Positions 17,963 to 56,369 of a stretch of 64,000 bases of DNA are shown here, in pieces; the first letter of the stretch is position 1, and each line of letters begins with the position of its first letter. The notes beneath the pieces were generated by a model. That model was given only the letters and a program-made list of their open reading frames with translations, was not told the origin of the DNA and did no database searches. A program made the translations under genes and the position numbers. The stretch spans positions 14,074,001-14,138,000 of the forward strand of contig JAGIQG010000032.1 of NCBI GenBank assembly GCA_024679065.1. The letters are read 5' to 3'. The DNA is from Sphyrna mokarran (lineage: Eukaryota).

Positions 17963-18221
17963 TAATTGAGTGTGAAGCTTAAATAGATTAATCTGTACCT
18001 CAACAGTCTTCATCCTTTAGATGGAATTAAACTAAGTTCCAACAGAAATTTCTGGAATATTAAAGCGCACAATTCATCTCCTCTAATTGCCTGTAAATTT
18101 ATAACAAGTAATTTGGCCTCAATTTTGGCAATTTTCAATAATTAACTTTTAAAAATATTGCATTTTGGTATCCCAATCAGCTTTGTGGTTAAGGCACCAG
18201 AGGGTGTGGTGCTCAACCATA

Positions 18222-19962
18222 AAGAATGAAAGAACAAAGAACAAAGAACAAAACAGCACGGGAAACAGGCCCCTCAGCCCAACGAGCCCACGCCGCCACC
18301 CCGATGTTCCCACCTCTACCCGCGATCCCTGTCCATATTTATAGATCTATGGATTATAAACCAAATTTGAGATAATTTAGGGAGAATTTGTTTTGCCAAT
18401 TATCCTAAGAGCACATCTTTGGGATGTGGGAGGAAACCGGAGCACCCGGAGAAAACCCACGCAAGCACGGGGAGAATGCGCAAACTTCCACAGACACAGG
18501 CCCAAATCCATGTATCTGCACAGCACAGTGATAGTCACTGAGCTGTCGTGTTGCCCATCAAATGGTCCAGGTCAAGCATACACTAACTACGTGAAGCACT
18601 AGGATACTCTCAAAACAAAATCCAAGAGCAGTCCTCTCACGACCCATCGCGTGTGTGCCCCGCATTAGACAACAAGGTGGACCAAAGCGCCTGTAGGATA
18701 TAAAACAGGTACGTCAATATCATCATCTATTTACACACTTCCCAGGAACTCCCAAGGCTCATGATCCCTATTTTAAATCAGTTTTCTACACCCCTCCATT
18801 CCCATTCTGTTCATGTGTCCATCTAAGTATTTCTTAAATATCTCCAGAGTGCCTGCCTCCACACTTTACTTGGCAGCGCATTCCATACTCCCACCACCCT
18901 CTGTGTGAAAAAACTCCCTCTAGCATCCAAATTATACCTTACCCCCCTCACCCTAAACCCGTGACCCCTCGTGCTATTCGAGTCCATCCTAGGAAAAAGC
19001 TTAACCCTGTTTACTCTATCTATACCTCTCAATCTTGTACACCTCTATTAGATCTCCTCGAAGTCTACATCCTTCTAAGGAAAACAGCCCCAATTTGCCT
19101 AACCTCTCCTCGTAACTCAGACCTTCCATACCAGGCAGCATCCTGGTAAACCTCCTCTGCACTGTCTCCAGAGTCTCCACGTCCTTCCAGTAGTAGGGCA
19201 ACCGGAACTGGATGCAGTATTCCAAATGAGGTTTAACCAACGTTTTATACAACTGCAACATTAAAGGCCAGCTCTTGTACTCTATACCCCGTCCTGTAAA
19301 AGCTAACATACTATATGCTTTCTTCACAACCTTCTCCACTTGCTCTGCCACCTTCAGAGACTTGTTCACCTGCACTCCCAGGTCCCTCTGCGTTTCTATA
19401 CTCTTAATAGGTCTACTCTATCATATACCTCCCCACTACATTCTTTCTCCTGAAATGCATCACCTCACATTTATCAGAATTGAGTTCCATCTGCCATCTG
19501 TCTGCCCAAGCTACCAGCCTATCTACGTCCTGCTGCATTGCCTGACAATGCTCCTCACTATCCACAAGTCCAGCCATCTTTGTATTGTCTGCAAACTTGC
19601 TGATCACTCCACTTATTCCCTCTTCCAAGTCATTTATATATATTACAAATAGAAGAGGTCCCAGTACCGAGCCCTGCGGCACATCACTAGTGAGCGACCT
19701 CCAGCTAGAAAAACACCCTTTCACTATTACTCTCTGTCTCCTATTACCAAGCCAGTTACTTATCCATCTAGCTACCTGTCCTTGTATCCCATTAGCCTTG
19801 ACCTTCTCAACTAATAGTCCTGTGAGGGACTTTGTCAAACGCCTTACTAAAATCCATACAGACGACATCAACGGCTCGCCCTTCATCCACCATTTTCGTC
19901 ACCTCCTCAAAAAATTCTACCAGATTCGTAAGGCACGACCTTCCCTTAACAAATCCATGCTG
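18222..19962 (-). mobile_element. CR1 LINE (5'-truncated) with an extended composite 3' UTR
   Basis: ORF fragments 19807-19989, 19413-19886, 19016-19375 and 18823-19032 give CR1 RT ([40 protein letters not shown]). The ~570-bp 3' UTR ends in (TTCTTTG)n. Confidence 0.92.
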
Positions 19963-20384
19963 CGGGATCCAAGTTAAATCTCTGCTCACTCAGACAATTA
20001 GAAGCCTTGGCAGCAGCTGGGACTTCAGTACACGTGAGCTTGGGAGGAGAAAAAAGAACATTCAGGTCCCCCATTCCTGATTGCAATCCTGTGATTACTG
20101 CTTATGGCATCAAGGAAGAGCAGAATCGTGCTTGAAAAAGGATGCAGGGCAGCACTGGACACTTGTAACAGTAGTCATTTGATTGAAGAACCAGAGAACT
20201 ATAGATACTCATAGAATCAAACCTCAATCGGAATCAATGCCTTCAGAAAGTAAGGGGGAGAAATTACAGTGATAATACTCAATGCAACAATTCACCACAT
20301 ACACATAACATAGATAGTCAGTAATTTTTTTATTGTGCACAAACAGTAAACTATTACGATGGAACCTACCTTTTTTAATCTCAT

Positions 20385-22450
20385 TAATGCGATGTGGGTG
20401 TTGATGACTAGCATTTATAGCCATCCATAATTGCCCCTGAGAAGGGCACATGAAGGAACAGTGAAGGAATGGAGATATTGTTCCAAGTCAGGACAGTGAG
20501 TGACATGGAGGAAAATTCCAGGTAGCAGCATTCCCATATGTCTGCTGTCCTTGTTCTTTTAGAAGATAGCTGCCATGGATTTGTGGGGTGCTGCCTTAGG
20601 AGTCTTTGTGAATTCCTACTGTGCATCTTGCAGATGGTGCACACTGCTGCCACTGTTCATCAGTGATGATTGGATGGATGTTTGTGGAAGGGGTACCAAT
20701 CAAATAGGTGGCATTGAAAAGAATAGTGTCAAGCTTCTCAAGAGTTGTTGGAGCTGCATTCATCCAGGTAAATGGGGAGTATTCCATCACACACTCCTGA
20801 CGTGTGCCTTGTAGATAGTGGACAGGCTTTGAGGAGTCAAAGAACAAACAAAGAGCAACACAGCACGGGAAACAGGCCCTTCGGCCCAACGAGCCCGCGC
20901 CGCCATCCTAACATCTTAATGACATATCCTTGACTTTAGGCTATGCCTATTGTTGAAGATTCCCATATAGGGACCAATATAGGGACAATTTGATACCCAA
21001 TCAGCCTAACAGCACATTTTTGGGATGTGGGAGGAAACCGGAGCACCCGGAGGAAACCCACGCAACCACGGGGAGAACGCACAAACTCCCGCAGACACAA
21101 GCCCAAATCCATGTGTCAGCACAGCAACAGCGCTAGTCTCTGAGCTGTCATGTTGCCCATCAGATGGTCCAGTTTAAGCATACACTGACGACGTGAAGCA
21201 CTAGGCAACTCCTGAAGCAACCTCCAAGAGCAGTTCTCGCACGACATGCCACATGCATGCCCCTTGTTGGTCAACAAGGTGGACCGAATTGTCTGCGGAA
21301 ACAAATAAGACTTAATTAAACATGCTAAAAAAAAACTAAGACATTCCCGAGACAAAACTAAAAGATAGTCTACTACTATTTGGTCCTCCCGATATTCAAA
21401 CAAACAGTCTTGCTATATCCCTCTATCTGCAGACCGCTCATGTGGCTATCCAAGAGACCCTTAAACAACCCTAGTGTGCCTGCTTCCACCACCTTACTCG
21501 GTAGTGCATTCCACGCCCCCACTACCCTTTGTGTGAAAAACTGGCCTCTAATATTCGTCATGTACATAGCCCCCCTCACCCTGAGCCTGTGACCCCTCAT
21601 TCTATTCATTTCTAATGGTGGAAAAAGCTTACCACCATTTACTCTATCTATACCCCTCATAATCTTATATACCTCTAAAAGATCTCCTCTCAGCCGACGT
21701 CTTTCAAGGGAAAACAACCCCAGTGTTTTCAATCTTTCCTCGTAAGACAGCCTTTCCATACCAAGCAGCATCCTGGTAAATCTCCTCTGCAATCTCTCCA
21801 GGCCTCTACATCCTTCCTGTAGTACGGCGACCAGAACTGGACGCAGTACTCCAGATGAGGCCTAACCAACGTTCTATACACCTGCAACATCAGACTCCTA
21901 CTCTTGTATTCTATACCCCTTCCTATGAAGGCTAACATACCATACGCTTTTTTTTAAACCACATTCTCCACCTGTACTGACATCTTCAGAGACTTGTGAA
22001 CTTGCACCCCCAGGTCTCTCTGCATCTCTATACTCCGGATAGTTTTACCTTTTATCCTATAACTCCCCTCTACATTATTCCGGCCAAAATGCATCACCTC
22101 GCGTTTATCCGGATTAAATTCCATTTGCCAGTCTACCAGCCTATCAGTAGATATCAGTCTGTAGGTGAGTTAACAGATTCCTAGCCTCTGACCTGCTCTT
22201 TTTCCTTTTAGCTAGAGTATGTATATGGCTAGTCCAGTTCAGATTCTAGTCAATGGTAACTTTTTAGATGTTGATATGGGGGGACTAAGTCATGGAAATG
22301 CCACTGAATGTTAAGGGATGCTGGTTAGATTATCTCTGTTTGGAGATGGTAATTTTCTGGAACTTGTATGGCACAAATGTTACTTGCCACTCGTCAGCCC
22401 AATCCTGGATACTGTTCAGATCATACTGCATTTAGACATATTTAGACATG
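20385..22450 (-). mobile_element. Older CR1-group LINE split by the insertion at 20840-22143
   Basis: 20385-20839 (MEYSPFTWMNAAPTTLEKLDTI) continues colinearly at ~22156 (AGTC..AGGTGAGTTA...CTCTGACCTGCTCTT). Confidence 0.7.
20840..22143 (-). mobile_element. CR1 LINE (5'-truncated) with the same composite 3' UTR as 18222-19962
   Basis: ORFs 21729-21938 and 21376-21792 (LVRPHLEYCVQFWSP, RLRGDLLEVYKIMRG, FFTQRVVGAWNALP). The 3' UTR is homologous to 18222-18700. Confidence 0.92.
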
Positions 22451-43367: not shown

Positions 43368-43902
43368 CAAAACTCTGGTGCGGCCACACTTGGAGTATTG
43401 CATACAGTTCTGGTCGCCGCATTATAAGAAAGATGTGGAAGCATTGGAAAGGGTGCAGAGGAGGTTTACCAGGATGTTGCCTGGTATGGTGGGAAGGCCT
43501 TATGAGGAAAGGCTGAGGGACCTGAGGTTATTTTCATTAGAGAGAAGAAGGTTACGCGGTGACCTAATTGAGGCGTATAAGATGATCAAGGGATTGGATA
43601 GGGTGGATAGTGAGAGCCTTTTTCCTCGGATGGTGATGACCAACACGAGGGGACATAACTTTAAATTAAGAGGTGGTAGTTATAGGACGGATGTCAGAGG
43701 CAGGTTCTTTACACAGAGGGTGGAGAGAGCGTGGAATGCCCTGCCTGCAGCAGTTGTGGACTCGCCTACTTTGGGGGCATTCAAATGGTCGGTGGATAGG
43801 CATATGGATGGTATTGGAATAGTTTAGGTTAGAGGGTCCACTGGCCGGCGCAACATCGAGGGCCTAAGGGCCTGCACTGCGCTGTAATGTTCTATGTTCT
43901 AT
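43368..43902 (+). mobile_element. Young CR1 LINE 3' fragment (open frame to the stop codon, short 3' UTR)
   Basis: KTLVRPHLEYCIQFWSPHYKKDVEALERVQRRFTRMLPG...DRHMDGIGIV*, followed by tail TAATGTTCTATGTTCTAT. Confidence 0.92.
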
Positions 43903-46659: not shown

Positions 46660-46880
46660 ATGTAGAGATGCTGGCATTGGACTGGGGTAAACAAAGTAAG
46701 AAATTTCACAACACCAGGTTAGAGTCCAACCAGTTTATTTGATTGTAATCTTACAAGCTTTTGGAAACGGTGTTCCTTCGTCAGGTGTGTGAAAGGCGAT
46801 AGATGGTGTAGAACCTTCCACATATCTGACAAAGGAACACTGTTTCCGAAAGCTTGTATGATTATTATCAAATAAACTGG
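46660..46880. mobile_element. Penelope-like terminal element with a ~67-bp inverted repeat containing two hammerhead-like cores
   Basis: Arms 46730-46796 and 46814-46880. Homologous to 27068-27237. Confidence 0.7.
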
Positions 46881-53662: not shown

Positions 53663-55318
53663 CATAGAACATAGAACACTACAGCACAAACAGGCCCTTC
53701 GGCCCACAAGTTGTGCCGAACACATCAAAACCTACCCAGCCATAGACCTATCTATAACCCCCAATCCCATTGGATCCCATATACTCATCCAGAAGTCTTT
53801 TAAAAGACCCCAGCGAGTTCGCCTCGACCACCACCGACGGCAGCCGATTCCATTCACTCACCACCCTCTGAGTGGAAAACTTTCCCCTAGCATCCCCTCT
53901 GTACTTGCTTCCCTGCACCTTAAATCTGTGCCCTCTCGTCACGACCATTTCAGCCCTGGGAAATACTCTCTGAGAGTCCACCCTATCTATTCCTCTCAAC
54001 ATCTTGTAAACCTCTATCAGGTCGCCTCTCAACCTTCGTCTCTCCAGGGAGAACAGTCCCAGCTCCCTCAACCTGTCTTCATAAGGCATGCCTCCCAATC
54101 CAGGCAACATCCTTGTAAATCTCCTCTGCACCCTTTCAATAGCTTCCACGTCCTTCCTATAGTGAGGCGACCAGAACTGCGCACAGTACTCCAAGTGTGG
54201 TCTGACAAGGGTCCTATAAAGCTGCAGCATTACCTCCTGACTCCTGAACTCAATCCCTCGATGAATGAAGGCCAGTACACCGTAAGCTTTCTTAACCACA
54301 TCCTCCACCTGGGAGGCCGATTTGAGAGTCTTATGGACCCGGACCCCAAGATCCCTCTGCTCTTCCACACAGCTAAGACTCCTACCTTTGATAGTGTACT
54401 CATTCATCCCGTTGGATCTGCCAAAATGGACCACAACACATTTATCCGCGTTGAAGTCCATCTGCCACTTCTCCGCCCAGTCTTGCATCCTGTCGATGTC
54501 ATGCTGCAACTTCTGACATCCCTCCAGACCATCCACAACACCACCGACCTTCGTGTCATCGGCGAACTTACTCACCCATCCCTCCACTTCCTCATCCAGG
54601 TCATTTATGAAAATGACAAACAGCAAGGGTCCTAGAACAGATCCCTGGGGCACTCCACTGGTGACCGACCTCCATGCAGAAAAAGAGCCATCCACAACCA
54701 CCCTCTGCCTTCTGCAGGCAAGCCAGTTCTGGATCCACAAGGCCAAAGCCCCTTGGATCCCATGGCCTCTCACCTTCTCAAGAAGTCTTGCATGTGGGAC
54801 CTTGTCAAATGCCTTGCTGAAGTCCATGTACACCACGTCCACTGCTCTTCCTTCGTCAATGTGTTCAGTCACATTTTCGAAGAACTCAATTAAGCTTGTA
54901 AGGCACGACCTGCCTTTTACAAAACCATGTTGACTATTTCTAATTAACCTAAACTTCTCCAAATGCTCGTAAATCTTGTCCCTCAGAAGCCTCTCCATCA
55001 GCTTACCAACCACTGAGGTCAGACTCACCGGTCGGTAATTTCCAGGACTATCCCTGTTCCCTTTCTTGAAAATAGGGACCACATCCGCAATCCTCCAATC
55101 CTCCGGAACCCCTCCCGTCTCCATCGACGACACAAAGATCATCGCCAGGGGCTCTGCAATGACATCCCTCACCTCCCACAATAACCTGGGGTACATCCCA
55201 TCTGGTCCCGGAAACTTGTCTATCTTGATAGCATTTAGAAGTTCTAACACATCCGCTTCCTTAATATCTACATACTCAATCTTTTCAGTCTGCCGCAAAC
55301 TTGTAGTGCATCCTCCCA
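53663..55318 (-). mobile_element. Young 5'-truncated CR1 (HER1-like) LINE
   Basis: Uninterrupted RT frame, short 3' UTR and (TTCTATG)n tail. Confidence 0.95.
53748..55298 (-). CDS. CR1 ORF2 remnant: intact RT and C-terminal domain (516 aa), no endonuclease domain
   Basis: Motifs [46 protein letters not shown] and RPHLEYC, with no stops or frameshifts. Truncated, so probably not expressed on its own. Confidence 0.85.
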   Translation of the reverse strand: MRQTEKIEYVDIKEADVLELLNAIKIDKFPGPDGMYPRLLWEVRDVIAEPLAMIFVSSMETGGVPEDWRIADVVPIFKKGNRDSPGNYRPVSLTSVVGKLMERLLRDKIYEHLEKFRLIRNSQHGFVKGRSCLTSLIEFFENVTEHIDEGRAVDVVYMDFSKAFDKVPHARLLEKVRGHGIQGALALWIQNWLACRRQRVVVDGSFSAWRSVTSGVPQGSVLGPLLFVIFINDLDEEVEGWVSKFADDTKVGGVVDGLEGCQKLQHDIDRMQDWAEKWQMDFNADKCVVVHFGRSNGMNEYTIKGRSLSCVEEQRDLGVRVHKTLKSASQVEDVVKKAYGVLAFIHRGIEFRSQEVMLQLYRTLVRPHLEYCAQFWSPHYRKDVEAIERVQRRFTRMLPGLGGMPYEDRLRELGLFSLERRRLRGDLIEVYKMLRGIDRVDSQRVFPRAEMVVTRGHRFKVQGSKYRGDARGKFSTQRVVSEWNRLPSVVVEANSLGSFKRLLDEYMGSNGIGGYR

Positions 55319-56369
55319 GATTCTACGTGATCTAAAGTTTCATTTTTTTTTCTAAAGGATCTTGCCATCATAACCAATTCCCAAATTATTGGCACACCTT
55401 CAACTTCCCAACTGGACAATTTACTTCCATTTGAAATCTGCAATGGTTGATGTGCTCAAATAAGCAAAGTCTTTCTTGTCCATCTTTTTTCCCCTGTCCA
55501 CCATCAAACTTTCACTCTTGCCCATATTTCCATGCTGCAGCCCATCTCTTCGCTCCCTAAAATCCAGTGGTGGCTGCAAATTTCAAAACATTGGGTGCAC
55601 AACTGGTTTGACCATCCTTCCACTGGGCCCGCTCGCCTCCACCAAAATCGCTCACTACTCCAAGACGGTGTTTGTCATGGTCTGAGTTTCAATGCTGGAA
55701 GATAGGATATTGTTCCACCTGAAGTCAGCGTTGAGCAGTCATTGATTAGGTATAAAAGGATGAAATACATAATGTCTAATAAATACACTGGGACAAATTT
55801 CACATCATACTTCACATCCCACAATATGTGTGATGCGAGAAATGTTGTTAACAAAAGATACATTAAGAAAAAAAGTAAGATTCTTCAGCAAGTACTTCTT
55901 CTTAACTAACGTATAGTCTACCCAGCTAGTTTTTGCGTCAGGCTCCTTAAGAAACTGAACAACTATTGAGAATATTGTGCTCTGGAAGTCTAAGTATAAA
56001 AAGTACAGGAGAGTTATAACACGTAATGCTCAATATCTTATTTGCTGTTCAGGTATCACTAAGTAACAAGGCTTACACTAATTCTGGCCCCCTCCTCAGC
56101 TTAATTGGAGCATGAAGAACAACTATCTGCGAAGATCAGCAATAGAAGAAAATGACCAGCATTTTTTTTTTTAAAGATTGTTCTGCATCTGTAACAACAT
56201 GCGACAGACTCTGTTAACCGTCTGCACAAACACTGGCAAATGCACATCTCCTGTGGCCAGTGAGTTAGTGGTTATGTTATTGAAAAAGAGGAAGCTGATA
56301 GAGCATACGGCAACATGGAAGGTCTACACAAATCCACTGGAAGAATTTAGGAAGATATTCTGGATTGAT

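Follow-up and report, generated by a model that had tools for sequence, protein, structure and literature searches.

The 3' UTRs of LINEs are known mainly for a terminal stem-loop that is recognised by the reverse transcriptase. In sharks and rays, the HE1 V-SINE is paired with the CR1-type LINE HER1 (PMC3747384), the function of V-domains is given as unknown in the accessible part of its source (PMC4824008), and capture of a V-SINE by a mobile element is known from MER6, a MITE that carries a headless V-SINE (PMC6887750). LINE-derived SINE bodies have also been discussed, the accessible text of that account containing no case like the present one (PMC5786205). Where splicing is concerned, the CTE of MPMV and that of NXF1 intron 10, the latter conserved to zebrafish and coelacanth, let intron-retaining RNA out (PMC4338338, PMC3856414). 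Conservation of a 5' UTR donor in human L1 has been attributed to a promoter site that overlaps it, which shows that a conserved donor can be a promoter by-product; splicing there is a dead end (PMC5860796). Finally, in the Ty1/Copia element EVD a regulated intron balances spliced and full-length RNA, and U1 binding also prevents early termination (PMC5580714).

The RNA domain described here is, like the stem-loops recognised by stringent-type LINE proteins, a structured cis element of a LINE 3' UTR with compensatory changes, but it lies ~300 nt upstream of the tail, is much longer, is absent from ordinary CR1s of the same genome and is lost in many 5'-truncated copies (PMC3747384). Its neighbours are, as in HE1/HER1, a tRNA-like head, a central domain and a CR1 tail (PMC3747384, PMC4824008), and, as in MER6, a presumed V-SINE has been captured by another mobile element (PMC6887750). 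In contrast to these systems, the hairpin is not part of the SINE but precedes its head, and the host is an autonomous LINE; the accessible text of the three reports mentions no such domain (PMC3747384, PMC4824008, PMC6887750). With the CTE it shares a stem-loop with internal loops (here a predicted fold), a position beside a splice-site word and, by its proposed role, an RNA that would leave the nucleus with an intron; it differs in following an acceptor in a LINE 3' UTR and in having no match in Rfam, a general scan of which was the sequence comparison made, so that the likeness is one of predicted fold and setting (PMC4338338, PMC3856414). Human L1, with its SpIREs, is likewise a LINE with a donor, an acceptor and a conserved 5' UTR donor, and its splicing works against retrotransposition; however, L1 splicing stays within the 5' UTR or reaches into ORF1 and gives rise to spliced copies, whereas here the acceptor comes after ORF2 with the hairpin behind it, and no spliced copies were found (PMC5860796). 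EVD, too, is a retroelement that keeps splice signals, but it is an LTR element whose spliced RNA encodes Gag, whereas the predicted CR1 product encodes nothing (PMC5580714). By analogy, the domain may work like the CTE or like the Copia U1/intron switch. A full-text literature search, read at the level of titles and abstract openings, returned no description of this domain; most subscription papers, repeat databases and supplementary consensus files lay outside its reach, and Repbase/Dfam-type files could contain the sequence.

A composite CR1 LINE and its relatives

We analysed a window of 64,000 nt (14074001-14138000 of the contig), the repeats of which are shark-like in appearance, and searched 2.77 Gb of the genome for related copies. 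The 3' part of the element reads, in order, ORF2 stop, variable spacer, acceptor-like signal, domain, decayed tRNA-like head, SINE central domain, variable stretch, CR1 tail and microsatellite. Copy A is a 5'-truncated LINE on the minus strand with the domain inside its 3' UTR. What is left of its ORF2, with broken frames, spans 18773..19964 and ends at a TAA stop at 18775-18773. Next comes a signal resembling a 3' splice acceptor (18691..18717), made up of a TTGAC branch-like word, a pyrimidine tract and CAG/G (the slash marks the splice point) and recognised from the sequence, a hand-made score and subfamily comparison; the predicted exon would start at 18690. The structured domain itself, of subfamily A, occupies 18564..18683 and, by predicted fold and covariance model, consists of P1, a short hairpin P2 and a long irregular stem-loop of ~35 pairs. 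Behind it lie the decayed tRNA-like SINE head (18498..18556), which by subfamily comparison has kept an A-box-like word and lost the B-box-like region, judged against what we take to be the box consensus, and the SINE central domain (18402..18497), which aligns with free SINE copies in the window and is 88-95% identical between subfamilies. We take this central domain to be of V-SINE/HE1 type, its likeness having been computed to the free window SINEs. The CR1 3' tail with a (TGTTCTT)n microsatellite (18221..18302; sequence and consensus) closes the element.

Copy B of the composite LINE lies 2.6 kb away, also on the minus strand, and its domain is 79% identical to that of copy A. It comprises a 5'-truncated ORF2 end (approximately 21396..22144), an acceptor-like signal of TTAAT, pyrimidine tract and CAG (21293..21321; sequence and subfamily comparison), a subfamily B domain (21166..21285; predicted fold and covariance model), and a decayed SINE head, central domain, variable stretch and CR1 tail (20838..21158; sequence and consensus). 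The preliminary description of this locus raised the possibility that the two copies are one local duplication; this is rejected, since each has at least 39 closer copies elsewhere (93-95% identity for A, 98-100% for B).

Full-length relatives measure ~4.6-4.7 kb and encode a GDSL-esterase-like ORF1, with a match below the Pfam curated cut-off, and an RVT_1 ORF2. Esterase-type ORF1, EN-RT ORF2, microsatellite tail and 5' truncation are all traits of the CR1 clade, and the element is presumably a CR1, a label that follows its likeness to other LINEs in the window. As originally reported, the 3' UTRs of the ordinary CR1s at 43368 and 53663 are short and do not contain the domain: a covariance model of the domain gave no match there or in five ordinary full-length CR1 loci, and 44 matches, all of at least 60 bits, in 42 sources (341,509 bases). 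One ordinary copy, at 53748-55322 on the minus strand, retains an uninterrupted ORF2 piece of 524 codons. The window also holds, at 46730-46880, a 67-nt inverted repeat, 87% complementary, with a 17-nt spacer.

In the whole genome a 22-mer from the 3' strand of the domain occurs 34,722 times and a 19-mer from the SINE head 33,749 times (reversed controls, 0 each). The first 30 head matches on one contig belonged to types A (22), F (7) and B (1), and 28 of them had the whole domain, the remaining two lacking its 5' part. We recovered subfamilies A, A2, B, C, D, E, F and G, at least seven of which carry the domain; G is represented by two copies and E by eight that were picked for damaged acceptors, a biased sample. 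A midpoint-rooted ORF2 tree unites the 18 rows of domain-carrying families in one clade (support 100/100), apart from four rows of ordinary CR1s. Contigs of four runs from four other organisms cover domain positions, and the domain is thus not private to this genome. The domain pattern had no match in viral contigs; a single match in a metagenome contig, with unrelated flanks of bacterial type, was taken as chance.

The SINE head of subfamily C is longer and still includes a B-box-like word (locus L072, 1545-1640, and the C consensus), which is deleted in A, B, D and F; the ORF2 tree nevertheless places A beside C (87/88), a hint of either recombination or repeated loss. Between D and B, the ORF2 ends are 98% identical and the domains 68% (L068, 7897-8052, minus strand; L156), a contrast that reflects either fast, structure-keeping change in D or an exchange of 3' UTRs. 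In loci L462 and L486, the 5' UTR runs straight into the 3' part of ORF2 at a point that coincides with no splice site.

Predicted fold and conservation of the domain

The helices proposed in the preliminary description are present in the sequence where it had placed them, with P1 (GGUCCA/UGGACC) at 18683-18678 and 18569-18564 and then P2, P3 and P5. For P4 (CGUGA/UCACG) and AGGA/UCCU agreement was partial: four core pairs form in 9-10 of ten aligned rows, the fifth pair and the A-U of AGGA/UCCU in two of ten, and the register is uncertain. RNAalifold, which returned 43 pairs, put a register of 35-39/93-98 in place of P4, and this competing register holds one double change. In copy A the helices are imperfect, with a U.C mismatch in P2 and a C.A mismatch in P3. 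Folded alone, copy A gave -40 kcal/mol (z -1.55, 14 of 200 shuffles being as good) and its opposite strand z -1.41; this decayed copy folds by itself no better than chance. For the subfamily consensuses, sense z values were -3.96 (A), -4.64 (B), -2.36 (C), -5.25 (D) and -6.01 (F), against -1.64, +0.29, -0.76, -1.51 and +0.20 for the antisense strands. The consensus of the two G copies folds on both strands and that of the biased E sample on neither. The strand bias appears in the A, B, C, D and F consensuses and is missing from copy A, G and E. Values of z between -3 and -4 also occur in sliding windows over a few other stretches (the ORF2 end, the C head region), and z by itself thus does not single out the domain.

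Covariation across copies was modest to borderline. On ten real copies, a 45-pair structure was 92.8% paired with five pairs changed on both sides, and its five measures were reached by 13-46 of 500 shuffles; the 41-pair structure first proposed gave 90.8%, four double-changed pairs and 7-13 of 500 shuffles on the same copies. Relative to a C copy, changed pairs were kept or broken at 4:3 in A, 8:1 in B, 11:3 in D, 7:2 in F and 3:0 in G. With 0.42 of single changes expected to keep a pair, p is 0.006 for B and for D, 0.03 for F and 0.33 for A. As the lineages depend on one another and the sequences compared are also those from which the structure was derived, we regard this pair-keeping as support and not as proof. 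In subfamily D, P2 is missing and the domain is a single rod; the conserved core is thus P1 plus the long irregular stem, and the three-way junction, once put forward as the defining feature, has to be given up. The rod-like stem contains invariant G-U pairs, and its 3' strand is the most conserved part. Long-range pairing between the 5' UTR and the domain was no better than in shuffles.

Domain identity was 79-88% among A, B and C and 59-88% across all compared subfamilies; the corresponding figures are 26-39% for the upstream spacer, 53-71% for the acceptor region, 88-95% for the SINE core and 55-76% for ORF2 third positions. The strongest conservation lies right behind the acceptor. One could still regard the domain as a nearly neutral passenger that is kept by its proximity to the tail and whose fold is an old inverted duplication. 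The borderline covariation, the changes in A, which fit chance, and the loss of P2 in D would agree with this. However, domain identity is far above that of the neighbouring spacer and the post-V stretch, the antisense strand does not fold as that of a DNA palindrome would, and D retains its low z with about a third of its letters changed relative to B, which makes a passenger quite improbable. A MITE origin was also considered and rejected, as the terminal repeat measures just 6 bp, no target duplication is visible and the fold is strand-specific. Altogether, the carriers form one clade, the domain outconserves both spacer and ORF2 third positions, and most changes keep pairs; these results support the initial proposal of a selected cis-acting RNA module of a CR1 lineage lying directly upstream of an embedded SINE head. 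The domain is a real, probably selected and uncatalogued RNA element of one LINE clade.

Known RNA classes and processing

No Rfam family reached its gathering score; the one match that touches the domain is to a lncRNA, weak and far below threshold. This agrees with the earlier failure to place the domain in a known RNA family. Neither at gathering nor at E-value thresholds was there a tRNA, 5S, SRP, Y, vault, SECIS, IRES, ribozyme, snoRNA or miRNA match, ARAGORN found 0 genes, and no box words of C/D or H/ACA snoRNAs, IRE or SECIS were common to all subfamilies.

The option that the preliminary description put first was a self-cleaving ribozyme or a processing site that releases the SINE-like 3' part. 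Self-cleaving ribozymes do occur in other non-LTR elements, and the domain lies directly upstream of the SINE head. However, the core words CUGANGA and GAAA of the hammerhead and AGAA of the hairpin ribozyme are absent from five consensuses, P2 is dispensable, and hairpin sequence stands upstream of all 30 sampled heads. Cleavage in the 3' UTR would, moreover, separate the ORFs from the tail. A filter for free 5' ends at the domain/SINE boundary, which about a fifth of such ends would pass, retained 69 of 33,749 heads; boundary 5' ends thus amount to ~1% over 4 nt, in line with ordinary truncation, and seven of 30 inspected heads among those passing still have the hairpin. The boundary looks like one of ordinary truncation, genomic 5' ends showing no pile-up there that would mark a processing site, and a ribozyme is scarcely credible. 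Ribosome recruitment, also suggested at the outset, would have no reading frame to serve, as the consensuses, read by hand, share no post-acceptor ORF between A and B.

A pri-miRNA-like substrate of Microprocessor, yielding a small RNA or limiting the activity of the element, would suit the predicted stem, since ~35 pairs plus mismatches is the size of a pri-miRNA stem, and the 3' strand is the most conserved. Against it, predicted seed positions differ between subfamilies, CNNC is missing at the expected place, and the stem has no single-stranded flanks, sitting on the junction with P1. At the predicted Drosha 3' cut, 290 of 34,722 copies pass the boundary filter, and most of the 100 listed among these 290 read as one-base indel variants; genomic 5' ends do not pile up at the Drosha-like site. 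We consider such a substrate very unlikely.

Splice-site-like signals around the coding region

Seven nt upstream of P1, consensuses A, A2, B, C, D, F and G all carry an acceptor-like CAG/G with a pyrimidine tract and a TNA(Y) branch-like word; E was left aside because its sample had been selected for damaged acceptors. The preliminary description was silent on this signal. The distance from stop codon to AG is 81 nt in A, 103 in B, 168 in C and 19 in D, the spacer is unalignable and in D contains little beyond the signal itself, and conservation between subfamilies begins at the pyrimidine tract and CAG/G. By a hand-made score, which is not a trained model, this AG came first in two A elements (among 496-503 AGs), in D (among 467) and in a partial C (among 197), and shared third place in B (among 483). 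With a branch word, a pyrimidine tract and YAG/G, all conserved, the signal has the sequence features of a U2-type 3' splice site; it is a conserved 3' splice-site word, putative in function. The last seven bases of the acceptor could also pair with those just after P1 to form a helix, P0, pairing being possible at 39 of 42 positions in six consensuses. P0 is predicted in B (0.6-0.9) and, as three CAG pairs, in D (about 0.9-1.0); for A and G its prediction varies with the stretch folded, and for C and F it is not predicted. If formed, it is predicted to hide the AG, and P0 pairing is at the same time a non-splicing reason to conserve CAG.

At the other end, full-length B and D elements have a TATA-like box and, in the same place 45-65 nt before the ORF1 ATG, GTAAGT or GTGAGT, after which conservation drops at once. 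Among 30 sampled 5' UTRs, GTRAGT was counted by eye in 20 of 26 of B/D type, and the four of A type have GTGTGC. The C consensus (20 loci) reads AAG/GTAGGT followed by a U-rich tract. The TATA-like box stands ~125 nt before the donor. Donor and acceptor thus bracket both ORFs in B, C and D; in A, the most sampled family (22 of 30), the strong donor is lost and acceptor and hairpin are kept. One ordinary CR1 family has the TATA and at most a weak GTAGAG. In A, B, C and D, AAAG/G occurs just before the ATG, so that the nearest acceptor for the donor is 36-61 nt away.

No spliced form was recovered by our searches. Assembled contigs of four runs, mostly of presumed RNA origin, contained no donor-to-acceptor joint among the 15 joints listed, with 91 more beyond these. 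In the genome, a junction pattern from the B 5' UTR donor gave 13 matches against 9 for the control, none with the domain; junctions from the TATA-adjacent donor gave two chance matches for B/D/F and none for A; and patterns with a boundary at the acceptor (26 matches for B/C/E, 2 for D) showed no upstream piece from a 5' UTR or ORF donor. These junction patterns thus revealed no spliced retrocopies, and the copied elements examined keep donor and acceptor signals unspliced. A boundary at the acceptor was seen in 57 copies and one at a control site, placed 49 nt upstream of it, in 49 copies, which is no pile-up. We fetched 50 of the former and 40 of the latter, leaving out eight control rows that shared one flank and one other, and found internal deletions in 4/50 and 4/40. 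In two of the 50 A loci, ORF2 GAG/GT is joined exactly to the acceptor (deletions of 1509 and 771 nt), which could equally result from splicing or from AG/GTG microhomology. At the acceptor, 19 of 35 unique flanks ended in AG; at the control, GG was kept in 6 of 28 (p 0.01 in a post hoc comparison). Chimeras with host exons were considered and rejected: the four recognisable flanks (L199, L203, L213 and L228) continue on the far side of the insertion and hence are target sites.

Of the readings that these data allow, we tentatively prefer one in which the domain is a protein-binding cis element that restrains splicing at the acceptor and licenses intron-retaining RNA, though our confidence in it stays well short of even. 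For an RNA whose whole length has to be copied, a strong acceptor downstream of the ORFs, mostly combined with a donor upstream of them, means that splicing has to be avoided and that the RNA has to be exported with its intron. A conserved rod beginning 7 nt behind the AG, and able to fold over it, is in a good position to serve this purpose. U2AF/U2 and U1 would engage acceptor and donor, so that the stretch with ORF1 and ORF2 would resemble a single retained intron. The hairpin would then limit use of the acceptor, recruit an export factor as retroviral transport elements do, or both; the predicted P0 helix would fold the rod back over the acceptor and hide its AG. The LINE RNA would in this way be kept unspliced, fit for export and copying, and any spliced product would be a non-coding RNA of ~0.55-0.75 kb, unable to copy itself in cis. 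Against this stand the lack of observed splicing, the retention of acceptor and hairpin in A without a strong donor, and the borderline covariation. The stronger proposal, that the coding region of this CR1 clade, with its donor before ORF1 and acceptor after ORF2, is a retained intron and that a new class of hairpin gates the acceptor and exports unspliced RNA, is unlikely on present data. It would mean a LINE with a retrovirus-like switch between spliced and unspliced RNA, the spliced form being a non-coding RNA of hairpin plus captured SINE core.

The main competitor, possible though somewhat unlikely, is a general RNP platform for stability, germ-line localisation or loading of ORF1p or dsRNA-binding proteins. 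It would be unrelated to splicing, the acceptor-like word being the U-rich, CAG-pairing front edge of the module and perhaps a captured host intron-exon junction. Such a platform would fit the abundance of A without its strong donor, the failure to find a spliced product in genome patterns and the 15 listed contig joints, and the invariant G-U pairs of the rod, and P0 pairing could conserve the CAG. However, pairing leaves unexplained why a branch-like word and a pyrimidine tract survive five-fold to nine-fold changes in spacer length, and the module could not be traced to a host source, although one present as a single copy would be unsearchable among tens of thousands of copies. Alternatively, the spliced RNA itself could act in trans: a 5' UTR exon joined to hairpin, SINE core and tail might serve as a non-coding decoy for host silencing or regulate the element's own proteins. 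The bracketing of the ORFs in B, C and D, the TATA-like box upstream of the donor and the peak of conservation right after the acceptor agree with this idea, but the donor has decayed in A, and neither the genome nor the listed contig joints yielded a junction although the product would end in a mobilisable tail; we regard it as improbable.

Should the preferred reading of a splicing restraint and export licence hold, LINEs would possess a second, much larger and lineage-specific RNA element tied to an acceptor and would, like retroviruses, manage splicing and export by RNA structure. Natural variants provide ready controls, namely D without P2 and with a minimal spacer, A with a dead donor, C with an intact SINE B-box region, and ordinary CR1s with none of these features. 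Tens of thousands of copies of a strong acceptor with a hairpin could also affect host transcripts.

Further splice-like words occur within the element. In ORF2 of A, C and D, around position 2740, a pyrimidine tract is followed by CAG/GTGAGG, acceptor- and donor-like and in the coding frame, which is probably a codon by-product. The mini-intron-like stretch of the 5' UTR measures 61 nt in C, 53 nt in B and a long D-like variant, 40 nt in A and 36 nt in D (L490, 895-958; L461-L489), and its D-like forms contain a CTAAT branch word. An intron of 36-61 nt is short for a vertebrate, and no B/D copies missing it were found in the genome. The TATA-like box lies ~170 nt inside the element (L069, 3937-4300; L159, 1750-2090; 5' end of L404), so that RNA initiated at this box would be missing the 5' end of the element. 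In some D copies (L159, L160), about the first 170 nt are repeated in tandem.
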